A DNA stretch of 64,000 nucleotides from Psammoneis japonica (GCA_008632985.1 QPGO01000203.1:62001-126000), one strand, 5' to 3'. Positions 7,561 to 64,000 are shown, counted from the first letter of the stretch. The notes: generated from the sequence alone by a model not told the origin. A program made the numbers and translations.

Positions 7561-8906
7561 CTAGTTATAGCACCGAGAGATGCGGCACGACGTGTTTCTC
7601 GATCCCGGATTGGATTTTCTGGTTTCCCGCCATTTTCCCTCAATTTCAGCACGTGCTTTCTCTCCAACAATGTCACCCAAAGAATTGCGAAGCATTGCCA
7701 TGTTTTCCTTTAGTGCATGAGCTAAAGCACTCTCTCCAGCACTTCCGTGGTGGTCGTCTTGAACAGAGAAGGCTTTTCCTTGAGGAAGTGGCAAATCAAA
7801 TCAGGCTCTTTTCGCGTGCGCCCCAACACATTTGCCCACAAGGCATCAGGGACCAAAGACTTTCGCAACAAAAAGCTTCCTTTCTTTTTGCAATGATGAC
7901 AATCCTCGATTTCAGTGCATGCATTCTCTCCAACAATGCCAACCAAAAGATGACAAGGCATTGCTGTGTTTTCCTTTAGCGCACGAGCTAAAGCTCTCTC
8001 TCCAGCATCACCACACTGATTTCGCCGGACGCTGAGGAAATTTAGTGTGCGATTCTTTTGCAGCATCTTTCCAAAAGCTCTGGCACCTTTGTCGCCGATT
8101 CGATTGCTGTTGAGTTGCAAACTCCTGGTTCCCTTGTTCTGGGTGAGGCCTTTCCCGATGGCTCTGGCGCCTTCATCGCCTGTGCGATTCATTGAGAGAG
8201 AGAAATGACTGGAGCTTCATCATTCTCGGCAAGTCCCTTGAAAAGCTCTTGTGCACCATCATCTCCAATGTCATTGCCACGCAGAGAAAAACGTTTGACT
8301 GCACGATTTGTTTTCAACATTTCTCCAATGTGCTTTGCGCCCTCGTCGCCAATCTGATGATTGTGGTCAAGCCAGAGCACCTCGACTGAAGTGTTGTTCT
8401 TCAATGCCTCACACAGACACTTGGTGCCAGTTGGGCCAATGTGGTTGAAAGACAGCCCCAACTTTCTCAGCCGTGGCAGAGACGGGATCACTCGGCACAA
8501 CTGGCGCATCTCTTCATCTCCAACAATGTTTGTGGCACTGAGTTCAATCGACTCAACATTCGGAACTCTCTCATCGCCAAGATGTCTTGCAAATCATTTG
8601 AAGACAATGCCATTTTGTCAGAGGTGTCAAAGAGACAAGAAAATGAGTAAGCACCTGAAGAGGTCAGCGAGAGGTTTTCATCAAAGATAACAACAACGAT
8701 GTTGGATTCAGGATGCTTCGACGTTCGACCTTCTGCTTCGACGTTCCAGCAAGTTCGATCGTCGTAAAATCAGCGTAGGAATTGATGCGCGATTTCGCGC
8801 GATTGGATCTGGATCTTTTTCGCTCCAGCAGTTCCGCGGCGCGTCGCGAGGAGTCTGGAGGAGTCTTCGACGTTCGCTTTTTTCCAATCATTTCTTCAGA
8901 AGACAC
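7561..8906 (-). pseudogene. RI-type leucine-rich-repeat (NLRC3-like) gene, frameshifted, TpA-depleted
   Basis: Repeats of L.L..N.IGDEGA..I...L..N in ORFs 8189..8509 and 7722..8192, with a frameshift near 8190. An internal duplication (about 7640-7740 vs 7910-8010) is present. Neither ORF contains Tyr. Confidence 0.8.
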
Positions 8907-8969
8907 ATCACAAACCCACCGACGAGCGGCGGCGTTCTTGTTCTTGCATGGATCCGTTTTGTCGTCTTT

Positions 8970-14181: not shown

Positions 14182-15705
14182 ATGGCATCAGAAGGCGCAA
14201 GCGATAGCGCTCCGGCTCCCCCAATGGAAAGGAAGCAGCCTCATTTGATGGCTCAAGATGCAAAGACAGTTGATCCCTCCAAACTCACGGCACTTTCTCC
14301 GGAAGTGGTATGTTTGACGACAGACAGACTCTTGTGAGGCTCGTAATTTCGCTCCAAAAAATGTGCTCACATTTTTCGCTCCGTCTTTTTGTTCTTACAG
14401 ATTTCTCGTCAAGCAACCATCAATGTCGGTACGATTGGTCATGTCGCACACGGTAAATCGACAGTAGTAAAGGCGATCTCGGGCGTTCAGACGGTCCGAT
14501 TCAAGAACGAATTGGAACGTAACATTACCATCAAATTGGGGTATGCCAATGCCAAGATTTACAAAGGCGACGCCAAAGATGACGACGGCGGCCATTACAC
14601 ATCCCGTGGATCCTCCCATGCAGATGTCTTTGAGCATAACGGTATTACTTACAGACTACGTCGCCATGTTAGTTTCGTTGATTGCCCCGGACACGATATT
14701 TTAATGGCAACCATGTTGAACGGTGCTGCCGTGATGGACGCAGCTCTCTTGTTGGTGGCGGGAAACGAAACTTGTCCTCAACCGCAAACCTCTGAGCATT
14801 TGGCGGCTGTTGAGATTATGAGGCTGCAAAACATTCTGATTCTTCAAAACAAGGTGGATTTGGTGAAACCGGATGCCGCCCTGGCTCAGCAGGAACAGAT
14901 CCGGCGCTTTGTGGCGGGGACAGTTGCGGATTCCGCACCGATAGTTCCCATATCCGCAGTGTTGAAGCACAATATTGATTGTGTCTGTGAATATTTGGTT
15001 CGGAAAATACCTTTGCCCCCGAGAGACTTTACCAGTGTCCCCCGACTCATTGTCATTCGATCCTTTGATGTGAATCGTCCCGGACAAGATGTGCGCGACT
15101 TGCAAGGTGGTGTTGCAGGAGGGTCGATTCTACAAGGCGTTTTGAGAGTGGGTGATGAAATCGAAGTGAGGCCCGGTATTGTTACCAATAAGGAAGACTC
15201 CGACGGAAACAAGATTATGGTTTGCTCTCCCATTTACTCTCGAATCTCGTCGTTGTACGCTGAATCGAATGATTTGCAATTTGCCGTTCCCGGTGGATTG
15301 ATTGGTGTGGGTACACGGATTGATCCTACACTCACTCGTGCTGATCGTTTGGTGGGGCAAGTGCTGGGTCTTAAGGGACAACTTCCACATGTTTTTGCTG
15401 AAATCGAAATATCATACTATCTCTTGCGAAGGTTGTTGGGAGTCAAGACATCGGACGGCGGAAAGCAGGCCAAGGTTCAGAAATTGACCAAGAATGAAAT
15501 GCTCATGGTCAATGTCGGATCGACAGCCACGGGAGGCCGAGTCCAAGCTGTCAAGGCTGATTTGGCCAAGATTGCTCTCACTACCGCGGTTTGTACCCAA
15601 GAAGGCGAGAAGATTGCACTTAGTCGACGTGTTGATAAGCACTGGCGGCTTATTGGTTGGGGTCAGATCCGGAAGGGTACTAAGCTTGACGTAATTGAAT
15701 CGTAA
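14182..15705 (+). CDS. EIF2S3: Eukaryotic translation initiation factor 2 gamma subunit
   Basis: Exon 14182-14307, intron 14308-14400 (GTATGT...TACAG), exon 14401-15705. Motifs [30 protein letters not shown] and [11 protein letters not shown]. Confidence 0.98.
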
Positions 15706-21720: not shown

Positions 21721-22578
21721 CTATTGATTGTGCTTGCCGTCGACGTTCTCCTTGGCGAATCGGATCAACTCCTCAGCAACTTGCGCTCGAATGCCGCCAT
21801 CAATCAACATTGCGCAGAGCAGCGTGGAGGTGGCTGCGAACGATTCAAGGGTCATGTCCAACACTGCCATATCCTCCAACGACTGGATTTCTGTATCCGT
21901 AAGAGAGCAGAATAGCTCGTGGCTCCGTATCAAATCTCGAACGATAAAGCATGAGTCACTATTATTGGATGCTTCAGCCATGGATGGTGGTACGGATGGC
22001 GGCGTTTCGTCCCCCACTGCTAACCTTACTTGTTGTCATGTGAGACGTGGCCTGTAAGTCTCCATTCTCACTCAAAACGGGATCATCGACTGGAAACATT
22101 ATATCGGTTCGCAAGATGTACTTTTTTTTCCAAACTTGAGTGGTATGCTGGCGTGATACAGATCGTGTTCAAAGACAACCACTCTCCAGTTTGAGGCGTA
22201 ACCATTGTGCAGCAAGAAGACTGATTGTTCCTTGATCCGCACTTCCCGCCGATGCATGCTGATGACGATGTAGTAGTCGACACGTGATGGTTCAAGTATT
22301 GCGTCTCGCCACCATCAAAATTGACTCCGTTTCCATCATTAAGATAAAGCAACACCGTCAAGAGAGACTGCGTCTTGTTGGGTAGGAATGTAGTTGCATC
22401 AAAATGTGGCTCAAATCGATCGTCCTTGTCCGCATCATACTTTAGTAAACAGAACTTTGGATTCAGACCACAAGGCTTCTTTCCAAATCGTTTCGTCAGA
22501 ACAGCATCCAGATGCTCGAGATTCTTGAGTTTCTGCCACAGCAAATTGAGCATGGATGGGTTATAAAAGACTGCCAAT
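21721..22578 (-). pseudogene. 2OG-Fe(II) oxygenase (prolyl-4-hydroxylase-like) copy 1, 5'-truncated and frameshifted
   Basis: Near-identical to 26672-27520. FEPHFDATT...LLYLNDG...GGET is retained. Indels lie near 22185, 22125 and 22040, and homology ends at about 22578. Confidence 0.9.
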
Positions 22579-22799
22579 TATTACATCTCGCAGTGGAGTC
22601 TCTGCTCTCTACTCGCTGCAACAAATAGTGAGTCCATTTCCATGAGGAGCTGGATACAGCCCATGGTACAAACTTAGAGACAACGGCACCAGCGCCATTG
22701 TCGAGAATCAATCATTAGATTTTGATGCGCTCTGTAGGTTCCACGTAGAAGTAATACTATACATCTCTCCCCAGCGTTTGAATTAAAATTTTTGACCCG

Positions 22800-26107: not shown

Positions 26108-26500
26108 GGTCCTCTTCTTCCCCTCCACTCTACTTACAGTAGAGAGAATTTTACAGCAGCTCTAGAACCCTACTGTAGACCCTACTCCTGGACACACACA
26201 CGCTTCGCGGACATCATTGGCAGATACAACACTAACTGCAGCTGAAATAAGGCTAAAGAACATGTACACGGCCACGGTTATGTCCAGATTCTTGAATAAT
26301 GTCTGGAGTCCTGCTGCGTAGGTCCAGAAGACAGTGCTGCCGGGAAAAGAAAGGCACGTCGGGTCGCAGAACTGGACCCCGGTTCTGGATAGAGAGCGCA
26401 TTGCCTGACTCTAAGGGTCCTCTTCTTCCCCTCCTGCCCCTAGACAAACACACACATTTCGCGGGCATCTTTAGCAACTACAATACTGCTCTACTCTAGA
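26108..26500. repeat. Dispersed non-coding repeat starting GGTCCTCTTCTTCCC (one full and one partial copy)
   Basis: Matches 46466-46730. The head motif also occurs at 26416 and 28357. Confidence 0.85.
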
Positions 26501-26671
26501 GAGAGCTGAGTCACGGAGAAACGAGAAGAAGAATAGTCTTCGGTCTCAAGTCATCCAATGGCGTCACACGTGACAACCCAAACACTCGCGGGTTCTGGTT
26601 ACCGACGCGAGTTTTTGCTCCTCCGAAACGTCAAAGAAAATAACTTTGAAAAAGAATAATGATTCCACGTT

Positions 26672-27999
26672 CTATTGACCGTGCTTGCCCTTGACAGTCT
26701 TTTTTGCGACACGGATCAACTCCTCCGCAACCTGCGCTCGAATACCACCATCAATCAACATTGCGCAGAGCAACTTCGAGGCGGCTGCAAACGATTCAAG
26801 GGTCATGTCCAAAACGGCCATATCCTCCAACGACTGGATTTCTGTATCCGTAAGAGAGCAGAATAGTTTTTGGCTCCGTATTAAATCTCGAACGACAAAG
26901 ATATCACTATTTGATGCTTCAGCCACGGATGGTGGTACGGATGGCGGCGTTTCGTCCCCACTGCTAACCTTACTTGTTGTCATGTTGGGCGTGGCCTGTA
27001 AGTCTCCATTCTCACTCAAAGCAGGGCCGTCCACTGGAAACATTACATCGGTTCGCAAGATGTACTTTGTCCCAAACTTGAGAGGTATGCTTGCGTGGTA
27101 CAAATCGTGTTCAAAGACAACCACCCGACCAGTTTGAGGCATAACCATTGTGCAGCAACGAGAGTGATTGTTCCTTGATTCACACTTGCCACCAACACAT
27201 GCTGATGACGATGTAGTACTGGACACGTGATGGTTCAAGTATTGGGTTTCGCCACCATCAAAATCGACTCCGTTTCCATCATTCAGGTAAAGCAACACGG
27301 TCAAGAGGGACTGCGTCTTGTTGGGTAGGAATGTAGTTGCATCAAAATGTGGCTCAAATCGATCGTCCTTGTCCGCATCATACTTGAGTACACGCAACTT
27401 TGGATTCAAACCACAAGGCTTCTTTCCAAATCGTTTCGTCAGAACAGCATCCAGATGCTCTAGATTCTTGAGTTTCTGCCACAGCAAATTGAGCATGGAT
27501 GGGTTATAAAAGACTGCCAATTGATGGGGATTCGGATTCTGAATCTTTACAATATACTTTGACCCATCCATGGCTGTATGAGTAGCCTCCGTCACGTACT
27601 GAAAACCGGTTTGCGATGCCAACTTTATTAGTTCTCTGCACGTTTCCGCTGAAACAAAACTACTCACAGAAAAAGCAACAGAATCACTAGGGTTCTTCAA
27701 ATATCTCGAACATCTTGCTGGAAGTCGTATACTGTCCCAACCATGTACTGTTCTTCTTCTTCTTCGTTTTCTTCTTCGTTTTGATCTTGAGTAGAAGTCA
27801 GCGGACACGTTAAATTCAGCAGCTTCATCAAGGCGTCATGGGTGTTCACCGACGTAGTGGTACTGCTGATTGTACTTGACGATTCCTCGCCAGTCAACGA
27901 TGAGCTATCCTTTAAATTCTCTCTATCTCCATCGACCACTCTTATATTTTCAACCACAACGCAATCTCTTCTTGCGCTTTCGAGATGTTTCTCCACCAT
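26672..27999 (-). CDS. 2OG-Fe(II) oxygenase (P4H-like) copy 2; catalytic domain intact, frameshift near 27750
   Basis: HFD...H...R motif (FEPHFDA; FEHDLYHAS; KYILRTDVMF). The N-terminus MVEKHLES (27999) is out of frame here but contiguous in copy 3. Confidence 0.8.
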
Positions 28000-30070
28000 G
28001 GTTGATCTCCAGAATAAATTGTGTGAAAAAATGAGTGGAAGCTGGGGGACGTCTTCGGAAGTGAGACTGTCGAAGAAAGTTACGTAGAATTTGTACTAAA
28101 ACAGTCTGTCAATCAGTGCGATTGGGTATTTGGGACCTCTGGACAGATCCTACGTGTTTTCTTGTGCGTACAAATTGTACTGGGAAAACCCCCAAACGCA
28201 CTGGCGATCAGACCGCCTTCGACGCTCTCACTTCCAAAGACGCCCCCCAAAGCGCAGAAAGAGCGAGCGAATGAAAGGGTGGACGGACCGTGAAGCACGC
28301 GAACCTATGAATGGTACGCATTGCAATGGCACCCCTGCGATTGCGAGTGCGAACGTGGTCCTCTTCTTCCCGTCCACTCTAGCTCTGGCAGCCAGCAGTA
28401 GAGACTTTTCAGAAGTTCTGCTGGCTTCAGCACATTCATTCACGAATCTGATTCACGATGATTCACAGGGATGTGAAGAGGAATCACCACACAATTTGCA
28501 TCTTTGGAGCATCTTGTTCTTGTCCCCTGCTGCACCTGTCCTCCTCTCTGTGCTGCTGTGTTGTGCAACCTCAAGAGAGGTGCCAGCACCCTTCGTCTTC
28601 CATGTGAATCCTTGTGTCCCAAGTGGCTGCGAGACACTGGCCAGCAATGCACATGCCAGCAATCTCACAGCATGGCTTTTGCTGCCGCCAACCATCTCAG
28701 TGACATCCCACCCAACAGCAATCTTCTGCATTGCAGTCCTTCATTCCTCAGCAATTGGCATCTGTGCATTCTTGTGCTTGTGGGCTGTCTTCTGTGCATT
28801 TTGTGAGCCCCACGGAGAAGCATGTCTGCTGCTGGTGATCTCGCCACACTTGAAAGTTGATCTGGAAACCCTTGAGAAGTTTGCCAAAGCCTTTGCAGCT
28901 GCAGGCTCACTTCTGACACTCCTCCAAGTCTTTCAACACCCAACTGCAGTGGAAACCACATGTCCCATGGTGCTCATTCATGCAGTTCTTGATCAACTGA
29001 CCAGCACAACAGACCATCATCTCAGCACACTCATGGTGCTCATCCGCGCAGTTCTTGATCAACTGACCAGCACAAAATGACCATCATCTCAGCACACACA
29101 TGCCTCCTGCTGCTGCTTGATTTCAGCATCATCATCCAAGTGCTTTCAATTTAAGTTGGAGCAACCCCTTTTGTGACAAACTTGCACACCACTGGCTGCC
29201 TTGAAGCTGAGCAAACAGACTGAGCTGTCCAACAACCCAGGAAGTGCCAAACTGAACAAAGGTCATTTTGTCATGACTGTCCAAGACCTCGTCAAGTCTG
29301 GCAAGAAACCTTTTGTCATCTCAAGGACATTGATCGCAAAGCAGCACATTTGTCCAACTGTCTTTGTGCCTTTGCAGATTGTGACCTCCTTGACTGTCTT
29401 TGGAGTGCTGCACCTCCATTTGGTGCAGAAATGTGGTTTGTTGTTGTCATGTGCAGTGCAAAGAGGAGTTGCTTCACAACTTGCATCTCTTCAGAGCATC
29501 ATTGATCCTTGTGTCCCAAGCAGCCTCCAGCTTCAAGCTTGCTCATCCTTGCCAAAGCATTGCCAAATGCTCACAAAGCTTGCACAGCTGGACCATGTGT
29601 TTGCAAAAATGAGACAACCACCATGATCACCCACCCTCCCATTCTTGTGAGTGCCACGACAAGACAGCCCATCACAACAAGAGCCTTGTGGGCAATCAAA
29701 GATTGGGGCATGCTTGGTGGCATGGTCGCCCAATGCAATGATGCTTTGTGCTCTGACCTGTGATCACAATGATGTGCTCTCTCTCAAATGAACAAACAGA
29801 ATTGGCACAGCCAATTCTCTGTCAGATGTGACAAACAAAAAACAAGAGTGGCCAAGGTGGAGCTGCTGGTTCGGACATTTGTCCAATGTTCAACAAATGG
29901 CAGAAACAACAACATTGGCACCAAAGTCAGGAGCAGGACTTTCGTGGTGGCTTCATCAGCAGCCAGCTGCTGTTGTTGACATGGTTGAGGTTGTTGCATT
30001 AAAAAGATCCAAGTGGTGGAGGAGGACAGGCAAGTGGGCTTGATTGATTGTTTTTTTTTCATGTCAGCTC

Positions 30071-30072
<2 letters not shown>

Positions 30073-30106
<34 letters not shown>

Positions 30107-30126
30107 NGGGGGGGGGGGGGGGGGGG
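30073..30126. repeat. (CT)n microsatellite, an N and a poly-G run (probable assembly join)
   Basis: Seen directly, with N at 30107. A second (AG)n lies at about 36092-36113. Confidence 0.9.
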
Positions 30127-31959
30127 TGAGATGTGAAGATTGCAGCAAGACAAGAGGTTGCCAAGTTGCGTGATCGATGGCACACACCCTCCATTTGTTG
30201 CTCTGTGTTTGTCAGAACTTTGCATCCCACTCCCTCTTGAGGATGTGTGCTTTGGGTCCAGCATGGGCTGAGGATTCCATCAAAGGTCAAGCAGGTGGCA
30301 GAAACAAGCACACCACATGCTGTTGACACCATGGCAGCAGGAAGACTCTGAGAGTCATGTCCAAACAATTGTTCTCATTGGTTTTTGGAGGCAGAGAGGG
30401 ACAAGGGGAGCCAGCAAGCACAGTTGGGGCATGTGGCTGTGAGGACATCATTTTGCAGATTGCAGAGAATGGTGAAAAGCTGTCTGTGCCAGCAATTCAA
30501 AGACAGAGGGTGCGCTCATTGTCCCCAGCAGTTGCCACATGCTGCTGTGAGTTGTGCCAATGGCACACACAAACACACAACTGGTTTTGACAAACAACCA
30601 AAACATCATGAAAAAAAGAGAAAGAACATGACAGTGGGTCAGCAAAGTGGTGGCAAGAAAGGCACAAGTCAAACTTGCAGCTGGGGGGCAGAGAGCAGCT
30701 GTTGCAACTTGCAGGCTGACAAAGCAGCATGTTTCTTCAACAACATTTTTTCACTGCCCTCCCCTTTCTCCTGACTCCTGTTGTTGGGATTTCATGGCTT
30801 GATGGCTGCTGATCTGCGCTGGTCTTGCCAATCCCTGAGCTCACTGCATGGTGGATTGCAAACTCTGCTCCATGCCAGTTGTCATGTTGCCCTGGTGCAG
30901 AAGCCAAAAAGTGAGCATGAGACCCACCTTCTTTATGATGAGCTTCCCCAAGATTGCTTTGTCAATCTCTGACATGGTTGCACCACCCAATGGATGTTCA
31001 GGCTCCTCCACAACATTTTCTGAGATGCCAGTGCCTGCATCTCTAGCCTGAACTTAGAACACTCTTCTGACAGTGTTGGGTGTCAGATCGTCACACAACA
31101 GGTGCGGAGTTGTAGAGCACAACGTCTCACACACCATGGTGGTGCATCATTTTTTGTGTCAGCATCAGTTGTTCACAGTTCGTTCACGGTGTGTGCAAGC
31201 AAATCTACAATGGTCTGGCCACCTCTGCACGCAACATTTTCATCTGTGTGACACAGAACAGTGAGGAAAGCTTGTGTGACAGATGATGTTGAGTTTGGGC
31301 AATGCAATTTTCTCATGTTCATCACCTGCAAAAGGAAAAGGGGGGAAGGAGGGGATTCAACCATTTGAGCACACAAAAATTGACCATGTGGTCAGGGCCA
31401 GAGTTTTGTTGGCTTCTTCCATGTCATCTGGGGTGGGATTGCTGCAGGCTCAAAAGGTGTGGGTGCACATTGCAACTTTTTAGGGTGGCCCACCCTGAGG
31501 GTGTGCCACCAAGCTGAGCACCCCAGCTTGGTTTTTGCCCAAACCCCAGGCCAGCTGCCAGCCCCAGGAGGTGCTCTTCTCCCAGTGTGGTTTGGCTGTT
31601 CTCAAGCTGCACCACATTGATTCAAAGCCTGCTGCTGCACATGGGAAGGGCCAGAGGGAGAAGAAAAACATGCAAGTTTTGGCTGCTTGCTTTGGACCTT
31701 GTGTTGGTCATGAGCAAGCTGCATGACAAGACAGACACATGTCACACTGTTTGTCTTGCAGCTCCAGGAGCCTGCATCATTCTCAAGTTTGATGTGTCTC
31801 ATCTGGCAGCTTGGCAGCTTGGCAGACTTTCTTTGTTGCAGCCTGGCAAGTCATGGGGTGGGTGGCGCTGTTGTCAAGAGCCACTCCTCTGCAGGAGAGG
31901 GACAGGCACAGAAAAGTTTTGCAGGAGCTCTTCTGCCAATCAATGGCCAGTCAGGGCAG

Positions 31960-33120
31960 ACCAGACTGTGGAGATTTTCTTTTGATGAAAGCCAAGCAGC
32001 CACAGCAAGAGAACAATCATCAATGGCCGCAGCAGCCTGGGCAGTGGGATTTTCCTTTGATGATGGAAAAGCCAAGCAGCCACAGCAAGAGAAGATGCTT
32101 TTGTGATGGAGCATCAAATGGACAAAGCCTGGGTGTGCAAAGAGTTGTTTGCCCCAGCTCCAGCAAGCCATGTGCTCCAAAGGTGACACTGCACACATGT
32201 TTGTGCACCAACATGCCTCTTGTTTCAGGCCCTGTGTGTTGATGAGCAAGCTTCTGAGAGAAGAGTGAGAGGTGCAGCTGCATCACTGTGTGATGCTGGA
32301 GAGACTCATTGCAGCTGATGCATCTCAGGTTTCATGCTCAGCATGATGCTCAGTGACTCTTCTTGGGCCCAACCTCACTCAGAGCTTCTTTGTGTCAACA
32401 ACAAATTTTTCCACAGCACTGACAAAACAGCTTGAGGAAGCCTGCATGGAACAGGAGCTCTGACCAGCAGCTCTGGCTTTGACTTGAGGGTGGGATCTTC
32501 ACAGCTGTGGCATCTGTCAAGCTGGCTCTCTCAATTGTGAGGGGCTGTGGTCATGTGTGGGGTTGGGCAGTGCAGCCAGTTTGCTTGCACTCCTCATTGA
32601 TCATGGCACAAAGCACTGTGTCACATCTGCAAAGATGAGGGTGACTCTTGTGGGTGCTGGGCTGGTGTTCTGAAGGTCTGGGTGCACCCCCTGGGACACT
32701 GAGGAAGGGCTCAGCATTGTGCTGGCAGCAGCAGCTTGGCATGCAGTCTTGGCTGCAGCTTGGTGTGTGGGCAGCACTGTTGCTGCCAGGAGCTGGTCTG
32801 TGGGAGGAGGGGGGGAAGCAGGCAGAAAACTTTTTCTGGAGCCATTTTGTCAGTGGTGAGGATGGCCTGGACACTGAGGATTTTTGATGGAAGCCAAGCA
32901 GCCACCACAAGAGAAGATGATTGTGATTGAGCATCTGATGGACAAACAAGCCCAGGCACAGAGAGCTGTCTGCACTTGGTTCCAGCAAGCAGAGTGCTCC
33001 AAAGGCAACACCTTGTGTGTGCACTTGTGTGCCAACAAGCTTCAAGCTGTGAGTCACAAAAAAGCCACCAACCTCCATGAGTGCAGCAAGTCTTTGGTGT
33101 GCTGTGTTTGCCTCTGTTGA
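31960..33120 (+). pseudogene. Decayed gene with duplicated CCCH-zinc-finger-like segment
   Basis: About 31970-32220 and 32875-33045 are similar. The second reads AVCTWFQQAECSKGNT, like C-x7-C-x5-C-x3-H. Confidence 0.4.
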
Positions 33121-33299
33121 GTGTGGATTGAAAGGAGGCTGCAAATTTGAGATGAGTTGACTCATCTTTGCAAAAAACAAGGTGTGCATCATCCGCTTTG
33201 ATGGGACGCCAATGCAAAAATCTTAAAACCAGCACTGTTGCAAGCACTGGACAGAAAGAGAAACCCAACCAAAGTCATTTCAAAATGAACATAAAAATG

Positions 33300-35950
33300 C
33301 TGCAGTTGACTGGCACTGAGCAAAATGCATTGATGATTTTGCCCTTGACATCCTGTTTTGCTTGTTTGACTTCACTTGTGCCCAAACTCTGCATGAGAGC
33401 AAAAATGTCACTCAAGGCTCATCACCACCCCACTTGGCTTCATTCACTTTCAAGTCAAAAACAGCAATGGGTTGTGAAGTTTGTCATCAACTGGCCACCA
33501 ACATGAAAATTTCTTTGTCTGTGTTTGTGACAAATCGGAGTGGTGGTCACTGCTGTCAAAAATGCCTCTCTGTGTGGTGAGTCACATTGCTTTGGCAATC
33601 CATTCTCAGATCCAGCTGGGTGGAGCAAGTCTGCCACACACTTCTTGTCCCACCCATCATTGATGAGAGCAGCCTTGGCTGCCTTCCCTCCATCAGCTTC
33701 TGTCACATGAAGCCCTCTGATGGCATTTGGTTCTGAAAACTGTGCAAGCTTTTCAAGGGAGTTTGCCATGGTTGAACAAAACTGCTCCAGTTGAGAAACA
33801 GGCAGAAGCCTCAATTTCATTCAAGATGCTGTGAATGGCTGTGTGCTGTGTTGCATTGGAACAGTGACACATGTTGAGGCCCTGCAATTGTTGGCGACAG
33901 TTTTGATTGTCAGCTGTGATCAAGAAAAAAAGCAACTATTCCATTGAGCAACATGCTCACCCCAAATCCCAAAGCAGAGTTGGGCAACATGGGCATGCTG
34001 TGTCTCACACTTGTCCACTGCCCATGCTTTAGAAAGTTCAAGTCAAAATTGCTTGTCATGCCCAAATCCACAGACAAATCCAAAAAGAGCCAGTGTGTCC
34101 ATCTTGCTGTGTTGTCCATTCCATGGGGGCAAAACATGCAAGCCCACCAGATTGATCTGTGGGTGCATTGGCATGTTTGAGGCAAGTGCAACATCTCACT
34201 GTTTGAGTTGTGATCCATGCACAGCTGAAAAGCAAAACATGTTCTGTCTCACATGTTTGGCATTTGCTGGAACTTCATTGTCTTGATGCAGTTGCTCATG
34301 TCAAACAGCAACACCTTTGTGCCCCATGATGCATCCAAAATTGACATGTCTTTTTTGACAATGAGTGCTCTGCAAGGCTCCACTTGATGAAATTGCATGC
34401 TGAAGCCATCAATCTTGAGCTCTGCACAGACTTGGGGGTCATCAGATTGATGATGCACAGCAGATCTGTCTCTGAATGTCACAAAAGGCACTTCTGTTTT
34501 TGATTTTCTTTGGTGGAGATGTGTCCTGTCCAAGTCCCATGCCAAGCTGCTTTCTCACAAAAAAGGGGCTGCCTGCTGGCAGCCTTTTCTTCACCAGTGC
34601 ATGGAGACAACACTGGCAGCTCCAAAGACATCAAAAGCAGCAGCAAGGAGCCTTTTCTCCTGTGCAATGCTCCCTCAATTGACATGCTTTCACAAGCCAG
34701 CTGCTTGTTCCTGCAGAGCCAACATCATGAAAACAACTCTGTTGCTCATCTGACAGGCTGAAAGGTGCTTGGATGTCATGTCAATGTCAACATGCCCTGC
34801 CATTGATCCAAGGCAAGTCAATGATGGGTCAAGCAGCTGACAAAACGAGGATTCTTTGATTGGCAAATGAGGCACATGGCATTGCATGATGGAGTGGAGA
34901 GCTTTTGCCCTGTGCTGTGGGTCCTGCATCCCTGGTTGTGGCAGCCCAACACATGATCCATTGCCCATTGGTCTGTGCATGTCGACATGGGGCAGAGGCA
35001 GCAGTGGTGTTTGGGCCAAAACACCAACACTCCACCACTCTTCAACATGCATGCAGCCAATGACTGGCCAACAAGGCATTGTCCTTCCAAGTGCACACTT
35101 GTCTGCCCCCTGGTCCACCTGCTCTTTGCTTGTTGCTTGGGTCAACATCACCATTGTCAGTGTGTTCTTGAGTGTTTTGACAGCCTTTTTTGTGGGGGTT
35201 TTTGTTGCCAGAACATTGTGGAAAAGAACAAACAAAACACCACTTTTTCCAAATGCAATGAGCACAGCTGCCATGAACTCTGCCACAATGCTGCTCCCAT
35301 GCCTGTCTGGACAAAAGAGAACAGCAAGCCTCACTTCTTTGGGCAGGTTTGATGATGACTCATTGGCCTTGGTTTCGTGCTGGCAATCAATGGGTTGGTG
35401 TGGCAACTCATGTTTTCACCAAATGGCTTGCAAGCTTGTGGATGATGAAGCTCTGCATCTTGCCATTGACCACATGCATTGTTCAGAGCTGCTGGTGATG
35501 TGGCCAGTCAGACATGAAACATCAGCTCATCAAATGTCCCTTCTTCCTGCCACCAGACAAGGACAGTCAGGAACCATCCATTGAGCTGACAGCATTGACA
35601 TTGAAAGAGGGGTCATTGATGACTCTCCTCTTGGCAAAGATTGTGCAGACATTGGTGGTGCACTGGTGCAACACAAGAAACAGCAGCCTCTCCAGAGACA
35701 ATGACCAAGCAAGAATGTGAGCAGCTGTGGAGAATCATCTGCTGGCTTCAGCCAGTGTGCCCCTGCAGAATTCTGCAGGCGAATGAGTTCAACATGTCAG
35801 CCGCACTCAGATCATGATGTCAACAAGGTGTCAAGAAATCTTTGCACACCCCTTGGATCTTTTAACCCAACAACTTCAACCACACACAAACAACAGCAGC
35901 CATCAGATGATGAAGCCACCAGGACAAAAATCTCATTCTCCTGACTTTGG
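33300..35950 (-). pseudogene. Hypermutated relic of a long unknown gene (VEEWW and GHVDIDMTS motifs)
   Basis: Chain of minus-strand ORF pieces (34690..35406, 34249..34545, 33910..34218, 33455..33820). The 5' part is paralogous to 37800-38070. Confidence 0.45.
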
Positions 35951-37559
35951 TCAATGTTGCTGTGCCTGCCATTCACTGAAAAAATGGCTGGACAAACATC
36001 CAAATGAGTGGCTCTGCCTCAGATGCTTGTGTCTTTTTGCATGTCACACGTGGTGGAAAATCAGCTGTGCTGATTCTGTCTGTTTGTTCAAGAGAGAGAG
36101 AGAGAGAGAGAGAGCAGAGCCTTGCCTTTGCAGGTCTCAAAGCAGCCCCCAGTTCTGACAGGAGCACATTGAGTCAAAGCATCGTTGACTTCACTCTCTT
36201 TTGACTCCAGCACCAACAGAATGAATGAGAGCTGCCACATCAGAAAATGGAGCTGAGTGATCAAGAGACAGCACTCTCTGATGTGGGGTGCCAACAATCT
36301 CTGGGAACATCTTGTCCCCCACAGCCAAGGGTCCCTGGCTCAAAACTGAGCATGCACTCTGCTCTTGATCCAAGACATTGCCATCTTGACAAGTCTAAAA
36401 TTGTGAGAAATTTGGAAACAACAAAAGCCAGTCAGCCAGTTTTGACAAATTTCCACCTCTGCATGACACAAGTGGTGGTCTTGCTCATGGGCACTCCCAA
36501 ATTCTGAGCATTGTTTGCCTCATTTTCCTCTCCACTCAAGTGCTCTCACAAACAATGTGTGCCAAGTTTGATTTTTCTCTTCTCTAAAATTTTGTGCCTG
36601 TGGCTCACCTTTTGCATTTGCGCTGTTGCACCAGTCACCAGTGCTGCAGCTGGCTTCTCATTGAAGACTCTCTCATTGAAGACTCCCTGGAGACACAAGC
36701 TCCAGTCCTGCACAATGCACAAAACAAAACACTCCATCTTTTGAGCACAACTTGCATCAGCTTCATGTGCTGAGGCTGTTCATCAAAGACACTTGTGTGT
36801 TCTGGCTTTTGCATTTGATTGGAGCATCGGTGCTCAGACATTTTTTTCCCATTTTTGTTCAAGTTTTCACAGGGTGCACTGTGTCACAAATTTTTTCTGA
36901 AGAAACAATGCAGCTGGCTGCACATCAGCACACTCCCATTGCAGAGAATTTTGCATTGCAAGCAGATCACTGCTGTGAAACACATGTGCAGAAACATTTT
37001 GTGTCAACCTCCAAACATGCAATGACACATGAATCTTCAAAAATTTTGGTTCAAATCATCCTCTGTGTTGCAACTCTCATTTCCCACAATGAAAAAATGT
37101 TGATTGCACACAAAAACAACAACATTGTGACACTGAGACACAAGTCTCATCAGTGTTGCAAAACATCAGAATTTGGACAAATCCACACTTTTGGCAGTGA
37201 AAGCTTGTTTGCAAGTCAGAGACCCCATGCAAAAATTTTGCAAATGTTGTTTTTGAGCACCACTGAGCTCACAACAGCAAAGTCATCAAGCAACAAACAT
37301 GCAAACAATCACCAACAGAAAATGAGGCAATTTTGCAAACATGTCTCCTCTCCCCCACATTTGAAGCACATCATTTCCATTTTTTCCCTGGGTGCACTCT
37401 TTGGACATTGAAGAGTGTGCCCAGCCTGTTTTTGCCACTGTGAGTGAAGAAAACAGAAAGTCTTTGAAACAGGCAGAAGACCCCACACACAGAAATTGTG
37501 TGATCCAAAACACTCTCCTGACATGTCACAGCCAGCACAGCAGTGTGAGCCCCCACCTG

Positions 37560-38300
37560 GAGCTGGAGTGTGTCTGACACACAAAGAAGTGACAAGAGCA
37601 ACTCATGAAGAGCATCTCACATGGGGCAAGATTTCAATGATGTCCTTGAAGCAACGGGGGAAAGGAGATCTGGTGGTGAAGATGACACAACACAGTGCTG
37701 CTGCTGCTGTGATTTGTTGGGAACTCACAAAGGAGCAGCAGATGCGATGGGCACTTGGCTTCATGCAGCAGCCAACAGGTTGGCACGACAACATGCCACA
37801 TCTTGGTTGCCATTGACAACAGATGTTCCTTCCTGCCACACCAGACGAGGACAGCCAGGAACCATCCCTTGAGCCAACAGCATGGACATTGAAAGAGGGG
37901 CCATCGATGTCCTTTTTTAAAAAAAGATCGTGCGGACATTAGTGGTGTGTTGGCACGACAAAAAGAAATGATGGCCTCCCTTGATTCGACCACGCGAAAA
38001 TAATGTGAGCGGGAAAGGTTCAGTACACCCCCCGTACAGTACGTAGAATTCTACAGGCGAATCTTTGAGGTCAACACTGAAAACAGTATGGTAGGCTCTG
38101 GTATGTTCATATCGGTACAATTGTCAGTACGTAGAAGCGAACGATGTTGCCCGGTAAGTGACGTTGTCTTTCCGGAATACAATATACGGGGACAAAGAAT
38201 AATAAACAAAATTGAAAATTTGAAATCAGAAGTTCTTCCTCCACCGACAAGACTAACTGACGACCTGAAGCATGATGCACATCATGGCACTTTGTACGGA
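37560..38300 (-). pseudogene. Paralog of 35400-35950 straddling the right edge of the depleted domain
   Basis: Clear nucleotide alignment of 37825-38062 with 35540-35784. SPVEFY vs SPAEFC and TTNVRTIF vs TTNVCTIF. Confidence 0.7.
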
Positions 38301-38487
38301 CGGTAGAGAGCAAAGGAGTGTTTCAGTTTCTGTTTGCAGCACTACTGTATCTTCAAAAATATGTATCTATGTAAATATGTATTGGTTACACGGATCCAGT
38401 TAGTTCCTCCAGATACATGTCTTTTTGCCGAAAAGAGCGCATCCTTGAAACCGATCTGTCGATGAAGAAAATTGTCACCCACGCGAC

Positions 38488-40307
38488 TTACAAGGAAACG
38501 TGACGAGGAACAATAGCAGCACGATGGTTGAAATGATACTCCGGTTCTGAATCGTCATCAAGCTTCATCCATCCTTCGTCTTCCTTTTCCTTGGCGGAGC
38601 TGTTGCTGTTGCTGAGTCCTTGAAAGGTGAATTCGGACGAGCGCGAGGCAAAGAGAGGCGGAAGAGGCGACATGTCACTGCTGCTACGACGGGCCAGCAA
38701 AAGAGGAGGTGCCACTGGTGCTTTTTTCGTAGTACTACTGTCCGTGGAGCCTGTCTGAGATGCGGGTGATAGTACCTTTGACCAAACACTTGGTTTCTTG
38801 GGGGGTCGTCCCATCCGACGAGAAGCTTGATTGTGAAAAGAAGGAGGGCGGAGGAGGACACTTCTTAGAAAAAGCTGGGCTACTCGACGATACCTTCTTG
38901 GACCATTCTGAAGAACTTGTGTAGGAAAGAAAGGGTGGAGGAGCAAGACCTGCAGGAAGCTTGGCATGAGCTTGCCCACGGCCCGACGACGCCTTGTTTT
39001 TGTTCCAATCCATAGAGCTCGCTTTCTCCAGGAGCGGTGGTAGTGGGCAATTCGATACATTCGTAACCCAATCAGAAGAGCTATTCTGTTTGAGCAAGGG
39101 TGGGGGACAACTGCTGTACTTGGAAGGGCTGGTACTGGGCACCTTTTTTGACCAATCGGATGAACTCGTTTGAGCAAGAAACGCCGTAGGCGGGGGACAC
39201 GACAAATTCTTGGCAAAAAGTGGGACTCGTCGTCAACTCCTTGGCCTTCTTCCAATCCATGGAGCTTGATTGGATAAGCAAGGGAGGAGGAGGAGCTGCG
39301 GTATTCTTTGTGACTGGACTGGACACCTTCCTGGCCCACTCGAACAGATTGGACTACGCCAATAGAGGAGGAGGAGGAGGAGGAGGAGGAGGACAGTCGT
39401 TTTACGTCGACATGCTACTTGACACGCTCTTAATCCACTCAGAAGATGTGCTAGAAGTGGTGGAGGCAATGGACAATCCGGATCCTTTGACGGACTCGAC
39501 ACCGTCTTGGCCCATTCCATAGAGCTCGACTGCGCTAGTAGCGGAGGGGGCGGAGGACAGCCGTTGACCTTGGGTGGACTCGCCGCTACAGTGGCCCAAT
39601 CTCAAGAACTTGCCTGTTTTAGCAACGGTGGTGGTGGAGGAGGACCATGATTGGGCGTAATGGACGCCGCCTTGACCCAATCAATGTCGGACATGCCGCG
39701 ACCTGTTGGCTGATGAGGCGAAGGATGCCCTCCCGAAACGACCGCGGCACAACTTGCTGGCGGACGTGGCGGAGGAGGAACGCCATTCTCATAGCCGGAC
39801 TCACAGCGTACTTCTGGACAGTATGAAACTTGACGAAACGGAGATAGTTCCTGCTGCTGTTCACGGGTGCCATGAGGTTGGTCTTTAGCCGCAGGATCTT
39901 TAGACTCCTCTTCGTTCCTTGTCGTACTATCAAAGTATGATACTTGTCGGTGGCCGCGGGGCGTCGTTCTTCAGAATACCGTGCAAGTCCGTCCTATTCG
40001 GAACAAGTTTTCTTACCCTCCCGTACAAATCTAGAAGCAGTCCATGCAATGGTTCCATGCTTTGCGTGCTATAAACAAAGTCACAAACGTGGTCACGGTA
40101 CGCCCTTTTCATTGTGCTATTTGCGTCGTGCGATGCCGCGCTCAAGGTCGCCGAGAAGTCGTCAAACGATGGTGTCGCAGGTGTGGCGCTTCCCGAGACG
40201 GTTAAGCTCCCAAAACAAGCCTCGTCCGTGAACAGCACACGGTGAATGAGCTTGGGATCCACCGCGGATAAGGCGTCATCCCTTGTGGTCGAAGATGACG
40301 ATTCCAT
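38488..40307 (-). pseudogene. TCP11 (T-complex 11)-like N-terminal domain followed by Ser/Pro-rich repeats, with stops and frameshifts
   Basis: KLIHRVLF...TMKRAYRD...LLLDLYGRVRKLVPNRTDLHGIL. Downstream SSS(D/M)W.KK...CP.PP.L repeats are split across frames. Confidence 0.55.
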
Positions 40308-45589: not shown

Positions 45590-46311
45590 GTCGTTTCCGT
45601 CATTCAGGTAAAGCGTGCTGCGTCTTGTTGGGTAGAAATGTAGTTGCATCAAAATGTGGCTCAAATCGATCGTCCTTGTCCGCATCATATTTGAGTACCC
45701 GTAACTTTGGATTCAGACCACAAGGCTTCTTTCCAAATCGTTTCGTCAGAACAGCATCCAGATGCTCTAGATTCTTGAGTTCATGCCACAGCAAATTGAG
45801 CATGGATGGGTTATGGGTTGTGAAAGACTGCCAATTGATGGGGATTCGGATTCTGAATCTTTACAGTATACTTGTACCCATCCATGGCTGTATGAGTAGC
45901 CTCCGTCACGTACTGAAAACCGGCTTTCGATGCCAACTTTAGTAGTTCTCTACACGTTTGCGCTGACACAAAACTGCTCACAGAAAACGCAATAGAATCA
46001 CTAGGGTTCTTCAAATATCTCGAACATCTTGCTGGAACCTGTATACTATCCCAACCGCGTGCCCTTTCTTCTTCTTCTTCGTTTTCTTCTTCGTTTTGAT
46101 CATGAGTAGAAGTCAGCGGACACGTTAAATTCAGCAGCTTCATCAAGGCGTCATGGGTGTTCACCGACGTGGCACTGCTGATTGTACTTGACGATTCCTC
46201 GCCAGTCGACGATGACCTATCCTTTAAATTCTCTCTATCTCCATTGACAACTCTTATATTTTCAACCACGACGCAATCTCTTCTTGCGCTTTCGAGATGT
46301 TTTTCCACCAT
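45590..46311 (-). pseudogene. 2OG-Fe(II) oxygenase copy 3, 3'-truncated and frameshifted
   Basis: Matches 27265-27999. A short insertion near 45811-45820 gives a stop, and homology ends at about 45590. Confidence 0.9.
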
Positions 46312-46465
46312 GGTTGATCTCCAGAAATCGTCGGGAAAAAATGAGTGGAAGCGCAGAAAGAGCGAGCGAGCGAAAGGGTGGACGGACCGTGAAGCACGCG
46401 AACCTAATATGAATGGTACACTCTACATACAATACTAAGCACCCCCGAACCCCCGCGAATAACTT

Positions 46466-46730
46466 GGTCCTCTTCTTCCCGTCCACTCTAGACTTCTCAG
46501 CAGCTCTAGAGACCTAGACCCTACTTCTAGACATACAAACTTTGCGGACATCTTTAGCAGCTACAATACTACAGCTGGAATAAGGCTAAACAACATTTAC
46601 ACAGCCACCCTTCTGCCTAGATTCTTGGATAATGTCTAGAGGCCTGCTGCGTCGCTCGAGAAGACAGTGCTGTCGGGGAAAGAAAGGCACGTCGGGTCGC
46701 AGAACTAGACCCCGGTTCTGGTTATAGAGA
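46466..46730. repeat. TA-intact copy of the dispersed repeat at 26108-26400
   Basis: Shared GGTCCTCTTCTTCCC...AAAGAAAGGCACGTCGGGTCGCAGAACT.GACCCCGGTTCTGG. Confidence 0.85.
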
Positions 46731-54998: not shown

Positions 54999-56004
54999 TT
55001 ACGCAAGACGGTCCTTGCGTTCATCGCTATCGCGAAGCCGCTGCTTTAGCTCCGCAATGCGCTTGTAGATGGAAGCACGATCCTCCAGCTCTGCGTCCTC
55101 CTCGCCGGGAGCCATCGTGCGAGCTCGCTTGGAAGTCTTGCGAGGCTTGACAGGGGTGGGAGGCACAGGCCTGCCCCAAGCTAGGAGCCCAAGGTAGGTT
55201 GCAAGACGCTTGGCGAGCTCCCAATGGGTTTCGTCTTTGCGACGCCAGGTGATGATTCCACGTGGACCGAAGCGAGCGACGAACTCAGGGTCGTCAAAAG
55301 GGAGCGACTTGAAGACATCGGTGTTCTCCCAACCCCAGTTCTTCAGAATGTAGAAAAGCCTCTCGATCGCTTCGACATGGAACTTGTCAAAAACGTCCTT
55401 CGGCGAGGCAACTTGAAGCAGAGCAGGGAAATCCGATGGATGAATCCGTTCCAGCAACGACAGCAGCTCTGCGCCGAGTGGAGCCACCCCCAAAAAGAAG
55501 ACCTGCTCGTTCCACTCGCGAAGCAAGGCCTTGTGCTTCTCCTCCCACCTTTTCTCTGCCTCCTCGCCGAGACGAAGAGCTTCCTCGTCGCCCCTCTTCG
55601 ACTCCTCCAGCCTCGTCTCCACAGACAAAGCGCGTGCCACTTCCTCTCGCGCGGCGGCCCACAATGCCTGCTTGTTTTCGAGAGCCAAGGCACATCCCGT
55701 CTTAGCCTTGCTCAAACGTTTCCCTTCGGCCTCGCTTTCCCTGCGATGCAACGTCAAAGAGCAACGACAAGAGGTGAGTGTCGAAAGCACAGTGCAAAAA
55801 TTGATCTTAATTACAGCCAAGCACAAAAACTCACGCGATCTTCTTCTCGTACTCTCGTCGCACGGTCTTGGGGTTTCTCGACGCGTTCTCCAGCACGACG
55901 TTCTTCGACCGATCCTCGTGATCAAGCTGGACATGATCGCAGATAGCGAGGAGATAACCCTGCTTCTTCTCGTCCAAAGCACGAAATGCGGCGCTCAACT
56001 TCAT
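54999..56004 (-). CDS. Unknown coiled-coil protein, two exons
   Basis: ATG at 56004 (MKLSAAFRAL...). Intron 55834-55741 (GTGAGT...GCAG) joins in frame to ESEAEGKRLSK...RKDRLA. Confidence 0.65.
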
Positions 56005-62523: not shown

Positions 62524-64000
62524 TGTTGGAAATGGTGAATTAAAAGTTCAAACACCGAAATCAGATAGCACGAAGAAGACGCATGCGTCAGCGCTCATCA
62601 TGTGCTCCACGTGAAGCACTAAAACTGCCGATGGAAGCAGTCATGTTGTTCTCTTTTAACTCTTAGAAAGCATTGTGATAACAAGCTTGTCTATTTTAGC
62701 CTCAGGATCAGACCTTAGAGGACTGAGGTGGCTCTGGAATGGTCACCAGAAGGACAAATTACAACAGTTGAAAGAGAACAATCCAGCTGAGAGCTGTGAA
62801 AAGAAAGCAAGAAAGAAAAGAGTCGCTCTCACGGTGTGTGAGACATTTTGCTGCTTTGCCTTTTTTATCATGAGTGGAAGAGGCAGAGGAAGAACTGGCA
62901 ACAGAAGCCAAGGAAGAGGACCCTCAGGAAGGGGAAACAAGAGAGCGGCAAGCAAAGCCACAAGGGCATCAATCATTGTGTCTGCTGTGTTGGAAGTGCC
63001 AAGCAAGCATCTGATTTTCAGATTGCTGCTGAGTTCATCATCAACTACATTAAGAAGACTTGTGAGTTTGGAAATGACATTGCAACTGCACTCAACACTT
63101 GCACTCCATGCGACATGAGTTCCAAGAAGCCGACTTTGCAGGTCAGCTTGGCTGGAGAGGACAAGGCAGAAGAGGTGTTGAGCAAACAGTGTGAAATTGA
63201 ATTTAAGACAGAATTTGATGCTCACATTAAGAGGACCCAGACTCATGAGAACAACCTTGTCAAGGCTTGTGCTTTGCTCTGGGAGAGATGCTCCAAGGCC
63301 ATGAAGAACAAGATTCAAGCAAGAACCGAGTTCCAAACCAAAATTGAAAACGATCCCATCGAATTGCTCAAGGCCATTGAGGAGCATGCATTGAACCATC
63401 AAGAGCACAGGTGTGACATGGCCATCATCTCAGATTCAATGAGAGCTGTGCTGGAAACCAAGCAGAAGGAGAAGGAGAGTCTCCGAGATCACACCAAGAG
63501 ATTCAGGGTTGCAAGAGACATCATAAAGTCTCACATTGGAGGACCAATTGTCCTTACCAAGGCAGTGCAAAGCATGTCAGAACATGACGAGCACAATGCA
63601 GATGCCATCAAGAAGTGTCAAGAAAAGGCGTTCAGCCAATTGATGGGTTACGTGCACTTTGAGAATGTAGACCAGTGCAAGCATGGATCAATTCTGACAG
63701 GATTGAACACCCAGCAGTCCCTCAAGAATGACCAACATCCCAAGTCTGTTGCAGAAGCCAACACGGTGTTGAGCAACCACACTTTTGACTGCATTGGTCA
63801 GCCTGATGACAACCGCGACAGGAACAATTGAAGCAACAACTCTGACTCCAAGAAACAAGAAGAAAGCCAAGAAATCATGATGTCCTTTGCTCAGTTAGAA
63901 GGCAAGTGTTGTTGCTGTGGCAAGGCCAGACACAATTCCAACAAGTGCTGGGAAAGGCCAGGAAAACCTCAAGCAGAATGGGCCATCAACAAGGCCAAAG
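62524..64000 (+). mobile_element. Left end of a Ty1/Copia (diatom CoDi-like) LTR retrotransposon with degenerate gag
   Basis: Candidate LTR TGTTGG(62524)...ACAACA(62766). gag starts at ATG 62870 (MSGRGRG), frameshifts, then reads GSAKQASD, LLWERCSKAM, DPIELLKAI, KQKEKESL.D.TKRF. In-frame TGA at 63829-63831, then zinc knuckle CCCCGKARHNSNKC. Confidence 0.88.

Follow-up and report, generated by a model that had tools for sequence, protein, structure and literature searches.

The closest described parallel to the locus analysed here, and the one report of TpA-directed hypermutation to date, comes from the chlorarachniophyte Bigelowiella natans, in which viral DNA integrated in the genome is hypermutated at TpA (Mettrop et al., bioRxiv, April 2026, 10.64898/2026.01.13.699255). 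The main text of that preprint reports that 231 of the 302 nuclear point mutations found in mutation-accumulation lines fell within two integrated viral regions, and that 230 of these 231 were A-to-G or T-to-C changes, with all of these GC-biased changes located at TpA. The hypermutation was seen in some lines only, at about 6e-7 per site per generation, and it raised the rate in the hypermutated regions about 1000-fold. The same text describes 324 low-TpA genes that are enriched in reverse-transcriptase and DDE domains, and it proposes an ADAT2-like deaminase as the enzyme. Here we describe a stretch of 64,000 nucleotides (hereafter the window) from Psammoneis japonica (GCA_008632985.1, QPGO01000203.1:62001-126000), which carries a 9.5-kb block almost devoid of both TA and CG dinucleotides and, at its right-hand end, a second, less completely purged domain that most probably corresponds to the 5' part of a Ty1/Copia retrotransposon. 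We interpret these domains, with modest confidence, as the product of two near-complete transition processes, TpA-directed hypermutation and methylated-CpG decay, that acted on discrete repeated or selfish DNA already residing in the chromosome.

Two further systems provide context for this comparison. In fungal repeat-induced point mutation (RIP), C:G pairs are changed to T:A mainly at CpA, which creates TpA (PMC2621366). Diatoms possess DNMT4, which is related to the RIP protein RID and whose function is given as unknown, and their transposons carry DNMT5-dependent CG methylation (PMC9998398).

The window is diatom DNA, because the eIF2-gamma gene at 14347-15702 encodes a protein with 85-92% identity to diatom proteins, the named matches being from Seminavis, Nitzschia, Mayamaea and Thalassiosira. 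Its composition was scanned in 1-kb bins, and expected counts were derived from the dinucleotide density outside the block. The main purged block (28400..37915), which is without a recognisable gene, contains 15 TA and 45 CG dinucleotides in 9,516 bp, compared with 372 and 546 expected, together with 1090 TG and 1134 CA. In the bins within 29001-37000, TA occurs 0-5 times per kb (observed/expected ratio, o/e, 0.00-0.08) and CG 1-8 times per kb (o/e 0.01-0.14), and the o/e values of TG and CA in bins inside the block are 1.5-2.1. Bins outside the block hold 21-62 TA per kb, except for 8001-9000, 55001-56000 and the last kb of the window, and approximately 41-86 CG per kb. A preliminary description of this DNA had noted that TA and CG are nearly absent from the block, that TG and CA are abundant and that the flanks are normal, and these counts bear it out. 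The limits it gave for the block are also correct, as the nearest TA dinucleotides in the flanks are found at 28399 and 37918. The edges are sharp, and the first in-block TA lies at 29152 and the last at 36585. Two features had been overlooked: the signature resumes at approximately 62761 and continues to the end of the window, and the block encloses a half-purged island (31040..31230) with about half the normal density of TA and CG (4 TA and 6 CG in 190 nt).

The losses and gains in the block balance each other closely. Per kb, the block has 1.6 TA compared with 39.1 in the rest of the window and 4.7 CG compared with 57.4, and it has 114.6 TG compared with 72.8 and 119.2 CA compared with 70.3. 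The combined loss of TA and CG thus amounts to 90.2 per kb, and the combined gain of TG and CA to 90.7. When bases are classed only as purine (R) or pyrimidine (Y), the block and the rest of the window are nearly indistinguishable, with 240.1 and 239.5 YR steps per kb, 240.3 and 239.5 RY steps, 256.1 and 258.9 RR steps, and 263.5 and 262.2 YY steps, respectively. The four base frequencies agree to within 0.005. Tetranucleotides of the form R-YR-Y fall into four classes that no transition can alter, and these classes occur at 62.7, 57.6, 55.8 and 63.9 per kb in the block versus 64.3, 54.8, 57.5 and 62.8 in the rest. Because the purine/pyrimidine pattern and the base composition equal those of the flanks, the block is host-like sequence in which TA and CG alone were exchanged through transitions. 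The TG and CA dinucleotides follow one another in random order (runs test, z=-1.04), without long tracts that favour one strand.

This spectrum bears on several proposals made in the preliminary description. It had named a general A-to-G process as one outcome that would count against a TpA-directed one, and no such process is seen, as the AA dinucleotide occurs at 77.8 per kb in the block and 75.3 in the rest. It had also considered foreign DNA with a composition of its own, which is at odds both with the host-like purine/pyrimidine statistics and with the retention of Tyr by the homologues of the Copia copy described below. Two of its candidate mechanisms fit poorly. Polymerase eta has WA as its hotspot motif, whereas AA is untouched here, and a biased repair of T:G to C:G should protect CG, yet CG is lost as well.

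One consequence of the altered composition concerns reading frames. TAA and TAG occur at 1.6 and 1.1 per kb in the block versus 15.0 and 18.9 in the rest, and TGA occurs at 53.5 versus 36.3. Long ORFs are found in all six frames because TAA and TAG were lost. The longest spans 243 aa, which is within the range that dinucleotide shuffles yield (mean maximum 224 aa). Five ORFs in the block reach at least 200 aa, compared with a shuffle mean of 1.06 and a maximum of 4 in 200 shuffles. This excess is only a weak hint at former coding, and ORFs that overlap on the two strands do not count as independent of each other.

The direction of the change can be read from the second purged domain (62761..64000, plus strand), which starts at approximately 62761 and is truncated by the end of the window. 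Its 1,240 nt contain 10 TA and 15 CG, a shortfall against background of about 79% for either dinucleotide. Within it lies a Gag-like reading frame of 329 codons (62842..63828, plus strand), followed by an in-frame TGA (63829..63831) inside the polyprotein frame and, in the same frame, a CCHC zinc knuckle (63907..63948). Homology runs on past the TGA, which aligns with a variable linker rich in Lys, Asp and Asn and may or may not have arisen from CGA. The Gag-like frame has 101 homologues at E <=0.001, and the named ones are from diatoms. Relatives of this copy are encoded by 78 metagenomic loci. When seven intact polyproteins were compared with the window by tblastn, they aligned to 62926-63999 with 45-52% identity and E values of 1e-92 to 1e-110. 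The Copia hallmarks present in the window are the Gag-like region and the CCHC knuckle. No long terminal repeat was identified. The window stops ahead of pol, and the RVT_2 domain (the Ty1/Copia reverse transcriptase) is known from the relatives, where it was found in all five of the intact polyproteins tested (1,643-1,755 aa).

Conserved Tyr positions were examined in an alignment of 102 sequences (the window copy and its 101 homologues), in which 15 columns have Tyr as the consensus and the window copy is aligned in 14. At these 14 columns, the window copy has His in eight, Cys in five and Phe in one, with Tyr at none, whereas the median homologue retains 87% of its Tyr residues. The knuckle shows the same replacement, as it reads C-C-C-C-G-K where the family consensus is C-Y-C-C-G-K. 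Other residues are largely kept in the window copy, with 16 of 19 Lys, 11 of 12 Ile, 11 of 13 Asn and 8 of 10 Arg positions retained in a 39-sequence alignment. Tyr is encoded by TAY, His by CAY and Cys by TGY. With the homologues serving as the outgroup, the replacement of Tyr by His or Cys therefore sets the direction as TA to CA and TA to TG. Both strands are affected about equally, as reflected by the numbers of His and Cys in the Copia copy and of TG and CA in the block, and this fits a substrate of double-stranded DNA rather than a strand of RNA or cDNA. The proposal in the preliminary description of a regional process that converts TA to TG or CA, equivalent to A-to-G changes after T on either strand, is upheld by these replacements and by the exchanges between repeats described in the following paragraph. 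A further protein of the Copia Gag family, P0215, has one Tyr, four Cys and one His across eight consensus-Tyr columns. Because it is only 46% identical to the window copy, it represents a separate element with the same purge.

Repeats within and beside the block indicate that mutation occurred in place. An inverted pair is formed by the arms 29777..30018 (minus strand) and 35847..36098 (plus strand), which share 75% identity and each adjoin a (CT)n or (GA)n tract. Over 239 aligned nucleotides these arms differ by 13 double swaps between CA and TG, where approximately 11.5 would be expected if each ancestral TA or CG had been resolved independently. The control, a duplicate outside the block that is not purged (727 aligned nucleotides, 94% identical), shows no such swap. 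The in-block copies were therefore mutated independently after their duplication. A direct repeat has one fully purged copy inside the block (35543..35660, plus strand) and a second that straddles the right edge (37829..37947, plus strand). Outside the block, the latter retains CG, CG and TA, and the corresponding positions of the in-block copy read TG, CA and TG. The inner part of the straddling copy still holds two CG. Its outer 32 nt belong to the end of a single significant match and do not count as independent evidence. That only the inner part of this copy is purged argues for a purge that acted in place and halted at a position, and against the arrival of an element mutated beforehand. 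The left arm is also close to a single N at 30107 that directly follows a (CT)17 microsatellite at 30073-30106, and the matching (GA)n tract is found by the inverted partner at approximately 36091-36120.

The left edge of the block coincides with a junction of sequence units. The unpurged left flank (27311..28405) is a duplicated unit with a paralogue at 45618-46513, and the homology between them stops at the left edge of the block. The identity is 92.7% over 741 nt for 27311-28042 versus 45618-46352, and 77.5% for 28250-28405 versus 46349-46513. The interruption between these segments is an insertion (28043..28249) that resembles a miniature inverted-repeat transposable element (MITE), with 33-nt terminal inverted repeats at 28043-28075 and 28249-28217. 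It lies just outside the block and has a normal content of TA and CG (8 TA and 13 CG in 207 nt). Its bin word depth is 7983 and some read-derived contigs lack a piece of approximately 235 nt, which points to either a polymorphic insertion or a very abundant element.

Read support was assessed with contigs that were built from the reads of the public run X1 without using the assembly as a reference. This run contains 79% of the sampled words of the block. Its contigs (475-1135 nt, word depth 50-66) have 0-5 differences to the block; two have none, and one spans the right edge. The preliminary description had asked whether raw reads support the sequence, and these contigs do so. Among 40 of the 273 differences between X1 and the window, 21 are inside the block and 19 outside. 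Several of those inside show CA or TG in the window where the contig has TA or CG, and the flanks show similar changes at YR steps, so these differences are non-discriminating. No RNA run was listed for the block, and run X2 covers the flanks only; neither result has a bearing on silencing.

At least part of the block is repeated in the genome. Among 651 contigs that were placed on 26500-39500, 303 are 90-95% alike and 170 are 95-99% alike. Several bins in the block region have word depths far above single copy (564, 362, 333, 691 and 3049), and segments of the block are represented at 4-50x single-copy depth. The highest of these values belongs to the segment 36916-37349, which is free of TA and CG and has a word depth about 50x that of a single copy, with some contigs skipping 170-187 nt around 37009-37197. 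This segment seems to be an abundant short genomic element that is either purged or naturally free of TA and CG.

Several kinds of search were used to identify the 9.5-kb block. No Pfam family was found above curated cut-offs among 17 long ORFs or among all 147 stop-to-stop ORFs of at least 45 aa, and the seven intact Copia polyproteins gave no tblastn match to the block. A word-based search with ORF 34693-35415 (minus strand) recovered no protein at E <=0.01 among 132 candidates, a phmmer search with ORF 36680-37408 (plus strand) against 1.84 billion representatives gave 0 matches, and scans of viral contigs with ORFs 32554-33222 (minus strand) and 34871-35581 (plus strand) found no relative. 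No Rfam family is found in 27000-39000. An RNY codon-periodicity scan was set aside because it did not discriminate between the block and known genes.

The TA dinucleotides that survive were used to examine the sequence context of the loss (n=25, with 15 in the block and 10 in the Copia domain). The context Y-TA-R accounts for 14 of these 25 survivors and for 16.4% of TA sites elsewhere in the window (p=7e-6), whereas R-TA-Y accounts for none of the survivors and for 29.5% of the sites elsewhere. Y-TA-R is also commoner among the survivors than Y..R contexts are (23%) among the CA and TG steps of the block, which would be the source of any new TA. The purge thus has an extended context bias, with R-TA-Y removed far more than Y-TA-R. 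Among the gains, the mixed classes differ by about 2:1, with 31.8 per kb for YTGY/RCAR and 15.5 per kb for YCAY/RTGR (bootstrap interval of the difference 9.9-23.3). A rule for the TA step in which the preferred A precedes a pyrimidine was suggested by the survivors and by these 2:1 gains, but it finds no support in the Tyr codons preceded by a pyrimidine, which became Cys in four cases and His in four.

Surveying the 78 metagenomic relatives of the Copia copy helps to separate the two losses. TA loss is absent from all 78, with a lowest TA o/e of 0.45, whereas approximately 20 of them have a CG o/e of 0.18-0.5 with a TA o/e of at least 0.49. Strong CG-only depletion with an excess of TG and CA is seen in L071-L077 and about 15 further loci, and is the expected trace of CG methylation in other diatoms. 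Among 945 windows of 500 bp from the 78 loci, only one has a TA o/e below 0.25. This window, L015:1-500, contains 5 TA, has o/e values of 0.7 for CG, 1.59 for TG and 1.36 for CA, and the TA-poor stretch breaks off near position 510. It may represent either a host gene that is poor in TA or, in an environmental diatom, a flank purged of TA alone. In the block itself, surviving CG are clustered at the edges, with nine in 28400-29050 and five in 37655-37915, whereas TA is absent up to the edges.

These observations allow the locus to be placed beside the described systems. As in B. natans, transitions at TpA give TpG or CpA depending on the strand, and the long-term trace is a depletion of TpA with an enrichment of CpA and TpG. 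In both cases discrete regions are affected, which in B. natans are non-host-like DNA and here are sharp-edged, with one being a Copia element and the block being multi-copy. The host, however, is a diatom and thus a stramenopile rather than a rhizarian. The B. natans regions described in the preprint are only partly depleted (Rho TpA 0.45 for a giant-virus insert), whereas the o/e of the diatom block approaches zero. The main text of that preprint records almost no change from GC to AT and mentions neither CpG nor diatoms, whereas CG is lost in parallel in the diatom, where this loss may be a separate, superimposed decay of 5-methylcytosine (5mC). The proven targets there are giant-virus and virophage inserts, compared with a Copia retrotransposon and a 9.5-kb block without a recognisable gene here. 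De novo rates are available for B. natans from mutation-accumulation lines, and the diatom case is known from its historical trace alone. Finally, no extended motif was found in the main text for B. natans, supplements aside, whereas the diatom survivors favour Y-TA-R over R-TA-Y.

The remaining systems share fewer features with this locus. Fungal RIP is likewise a regional hypermutation by transitions only, which hits particular sequence units at saturating density with sharp edges and disables transposons. However, the diatom block loses TpA and gains CpA and TpG, the reverse of the RIP outcome, and the diatom process removes TAA and TAG whereas RIP makes stop codons. RIP is also triggered by duplication, yet the 741-nt duplicate, whose copies are 18 kb apart, and the high-copy MITE-like element are unpurged here. 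The decay of methylated CpG in transposons resembles the diatom case in its conversion of CG to TG or CA, restricted to transposons, with a matching gain, and members of the same Copia family are depleted in CG only, but such decay is incapable of removing TA. Editing by animal ADAR and APOBEC proteins also yields clustered transitions in retroelements and is a proposed defence. It acts on one strand of RNA or cDNA and is not restricted to TpA, whereas the diatom process affects both strands and only TA (with CG), leaving AA unaffected.

In the explanation that we favour, hypermutation of the same kind as that measured in B. natans would convert 5'-TA-3' to TG or CA by replacing its A with G on one strand or the other. 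The most likely chemistry would be the enzymatic conversion of adenine to hypoxanthine within DNA, carried out by a deaminase of the ADAT2/TadA type. Ordinary decay of CpG, presumably methylated, would convert CG to TG or CA. Both processes would be directed at the same silenced DNA by some targeting signal, perhaps with a defensive function. Their end product would be DNA without TA and CG, in which all Tyr codons have become His or Cys codons, TAA and TAG are gone, and TATA and AATAAA are erased. We prefer two co-targeted processes over one, though not strongly, because of the CG-only depletion among the relatives, the TpA-only hypermutation of B. natans, and the residual CG that is graded toward the edges without a corresponding gradient of TA. 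These same three observations speak against the principal competitor, a single coupled machinery whose reader or enzyme acts on both of the self-complementary pyrimidine-purine steps and drives both to TG/CA. We regard this competitor as unlikely. In its favour, the outer boundaries of TA and CG loss are identical and the losses run in parallel (approximately 96% of TA and 92% of CG in the block, and 79% of each in the Copia domain), which is what one coupled process would give. Its enzyme might be a deaminase that acts on both A and C, or one that such a reader recruits, and according to the main text of the preprint ADAT2 edits both A and C in amphioxus and deaminates C in trypanosomes, in DNA (10.64898/2026.01.13.699255). 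The feature recognised might be the symmetric pair of 5-methyl groups that fully methylated CpG and TpA both display in the major groove, of which TG/CA has only one. We know of no enzyme with such a double TpA/CpG specificity on duplex DNA. That a diatom machinery reads precisely this symmetric 5-methylpyrimidine pair and mutates both steps to TG/CA is a speculative and rather improbable idea. If true, DNA free of TA and CG could be neither methylated at CG nor mutated further, and would hence be hidden from both defences and free for recopying. Because purged DNA could be recopied in this way, such a machinery would explain both the contigs that are 95-99% alike and the high copy number of 36916-37349.

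Other chemistries and histories fare less well. Oxidation of thymine at TpA by a dioxygenase of the TET/JBP type would yield 5-hydroxymethyluracil or 5-formyluracil, and 5-formyluracil mispairs with G to give T-to-C changes, which on one strand are indistinguishable from A-to-G changes on the other. The same enzyme class acting on 5mC could add C-to-T changes, and in dinoflagellate DNA 5-hydroxymethyluracil favours TpA and TpC. A 2OG-Fe(II) oxygenase gene does lie in the left flank of the block (26672-27832, minus strand; PF13640, E 5.8e-09), but this match is to the general superfamily rather than to TET/JBP, and its position is probably coincidental. The rates required for a 96% purge also seem high for a mispairing lesion, and we judge this route quite doubtful. 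Editing of the elements as RNA or cDNA during retrotransposition, by an ADAR- or APOBEC-like activity, would have them arrive already purged. This would be consistent with a left edge that is a junction of sequence units, with one domain being a retrotransposon, and with contigs that closely resemble the purged sequence. However, single-strand editing is expected to be one-sided, whereas both strands are hit about equally in one element. In addition, the repeat copy at the right edge is purged on its inner part only, and copies within the block resolved the same sites differently. To our knowledge, ADARs are restricted to animals. The main text of the B. natans preprint likewise calls them metazoan (10.64898/2026.01.13.699255). 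Editing before insertion appears very unlikely. There is least to be said for an artefact of base calling or polishing at modified bases, or for an insert of foreign origin whose lack of TA and CG is native and due to selection, either of which we consider extremely improbable. The N beside the microsatellite and the possible origin of the only supporting run from the same sample are compatible with an artefact. An artefact is strongly disfavoured by the read-derived contigs, which reproduce the block and one of which crosses its edge, and by the coherence of the changes at the codon level. Selection would not swap 13 of 14 conserved Tyr residues in Gag, and neither the host-like purine/pyrimidine statistics nor the CA/TG swaps between paralogues are expected from such an insert.

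Several results weigh against the two-process explanation or limit its reach. Besides the parallel losses already mentioned, the 170 contigs at 95-99% likeness are too similar for independent purging, and some of the signature therefore either spread by copying once the purge had taken place or represents alleles. Neither duplication nor copy number is in itself the trigger, because a 92.7% identical duplicate and a high-copy MITE-like element beside the block are both unpurged. The block itself would qualify as selfish DNA by copy number alone, with no transposon or viral gene found in it. In the Copia domain, the purge begins approximately 165 nt before the aligned Gag, whereas the contigs of relatives have 430-620 nt upstream, and a long terminal repeat, if present, looks unpurged. 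The 2:1 asymmetry among the mixed-class gains is not assignable to the TA step, because the Tyr codons are split evenly between Cys and His, and it may instead belong to the CG step. Lastly, run X1 may be the assembly's own sample, in which case a peculiarity of that sample could be responsible.

The preliminary description had regarded the process as undescribed, and this part of its proposal does not stand, as TpA-only hypermutation has been demonstrated in the B. natans lines (10.64898/2026.01.13.699255). Our literature search found no description of TpA-directed hypermutation for diatoms or stramenopiles, and no report of a saturated TpA purge or of a coupling with CpG loss (preprint supplements aside). 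The diatom host, the completeness of the purge, the retrotransposon target, the coupling with CpG loss and the hierarchy of sequence contexts therefore appear to be new. If the explanation is correct, TpA-directed hypermutation occurs in two or more of the three SAR lineages, including one of the major groups of marine primary producers, and is targeted at retrotransposons besides integrated viruses. The signature (TA and CG o/e close to 0, TG and CA o/e close to 2) could serve as a simple marker for mapping targets throughout a genome and for tracing the responsible gene by its presence or absence across diatom genomes. It is also a hazard for annotation, since purged DNA has long ORFs in six frames that encode pseudo-proteins rich in Cys, His and Gln and free of Tyr, and gene callers will take these frames for real genes.

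The remaining observations concern the neighbourhood of the purged domains. Parts of the oxygenase gene are repeated in the window (22357-22579 and 45618-46513) at 92.7-96.9% identity, which therefore indicates a local gene-family or segmental duplication. A 543-codon ORF (8691-10319, plus strand) encodes a low-complexity protein rich in Glu, Arg and Ala, with a long run of near-identical repeats of the ERxGERAAER type at 9600-10100, and no Pfam family was found for it. Adjacent to this ORF, the region 7724-8647 (minus-strand ORFs 7722-8216 and 8189-8593) holds three TA in its 924 nt, and 8044-8647 lacks TA altogether. The region has elevated TG and CA (o/e approximately 1.3-1.8) and mostly retains CG (o/e 0.6-0.9). 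By eye, the encoded sequence resembles leucine-rich repeats of the ribonuclease-inhibitor type, which are naturally poor in Tyr, and the region may be ordinary coding sequence or a TA-only purge. The TA-poor coding bins at 55251-56000 and 60251-61000 are without an excess of TG and CA.

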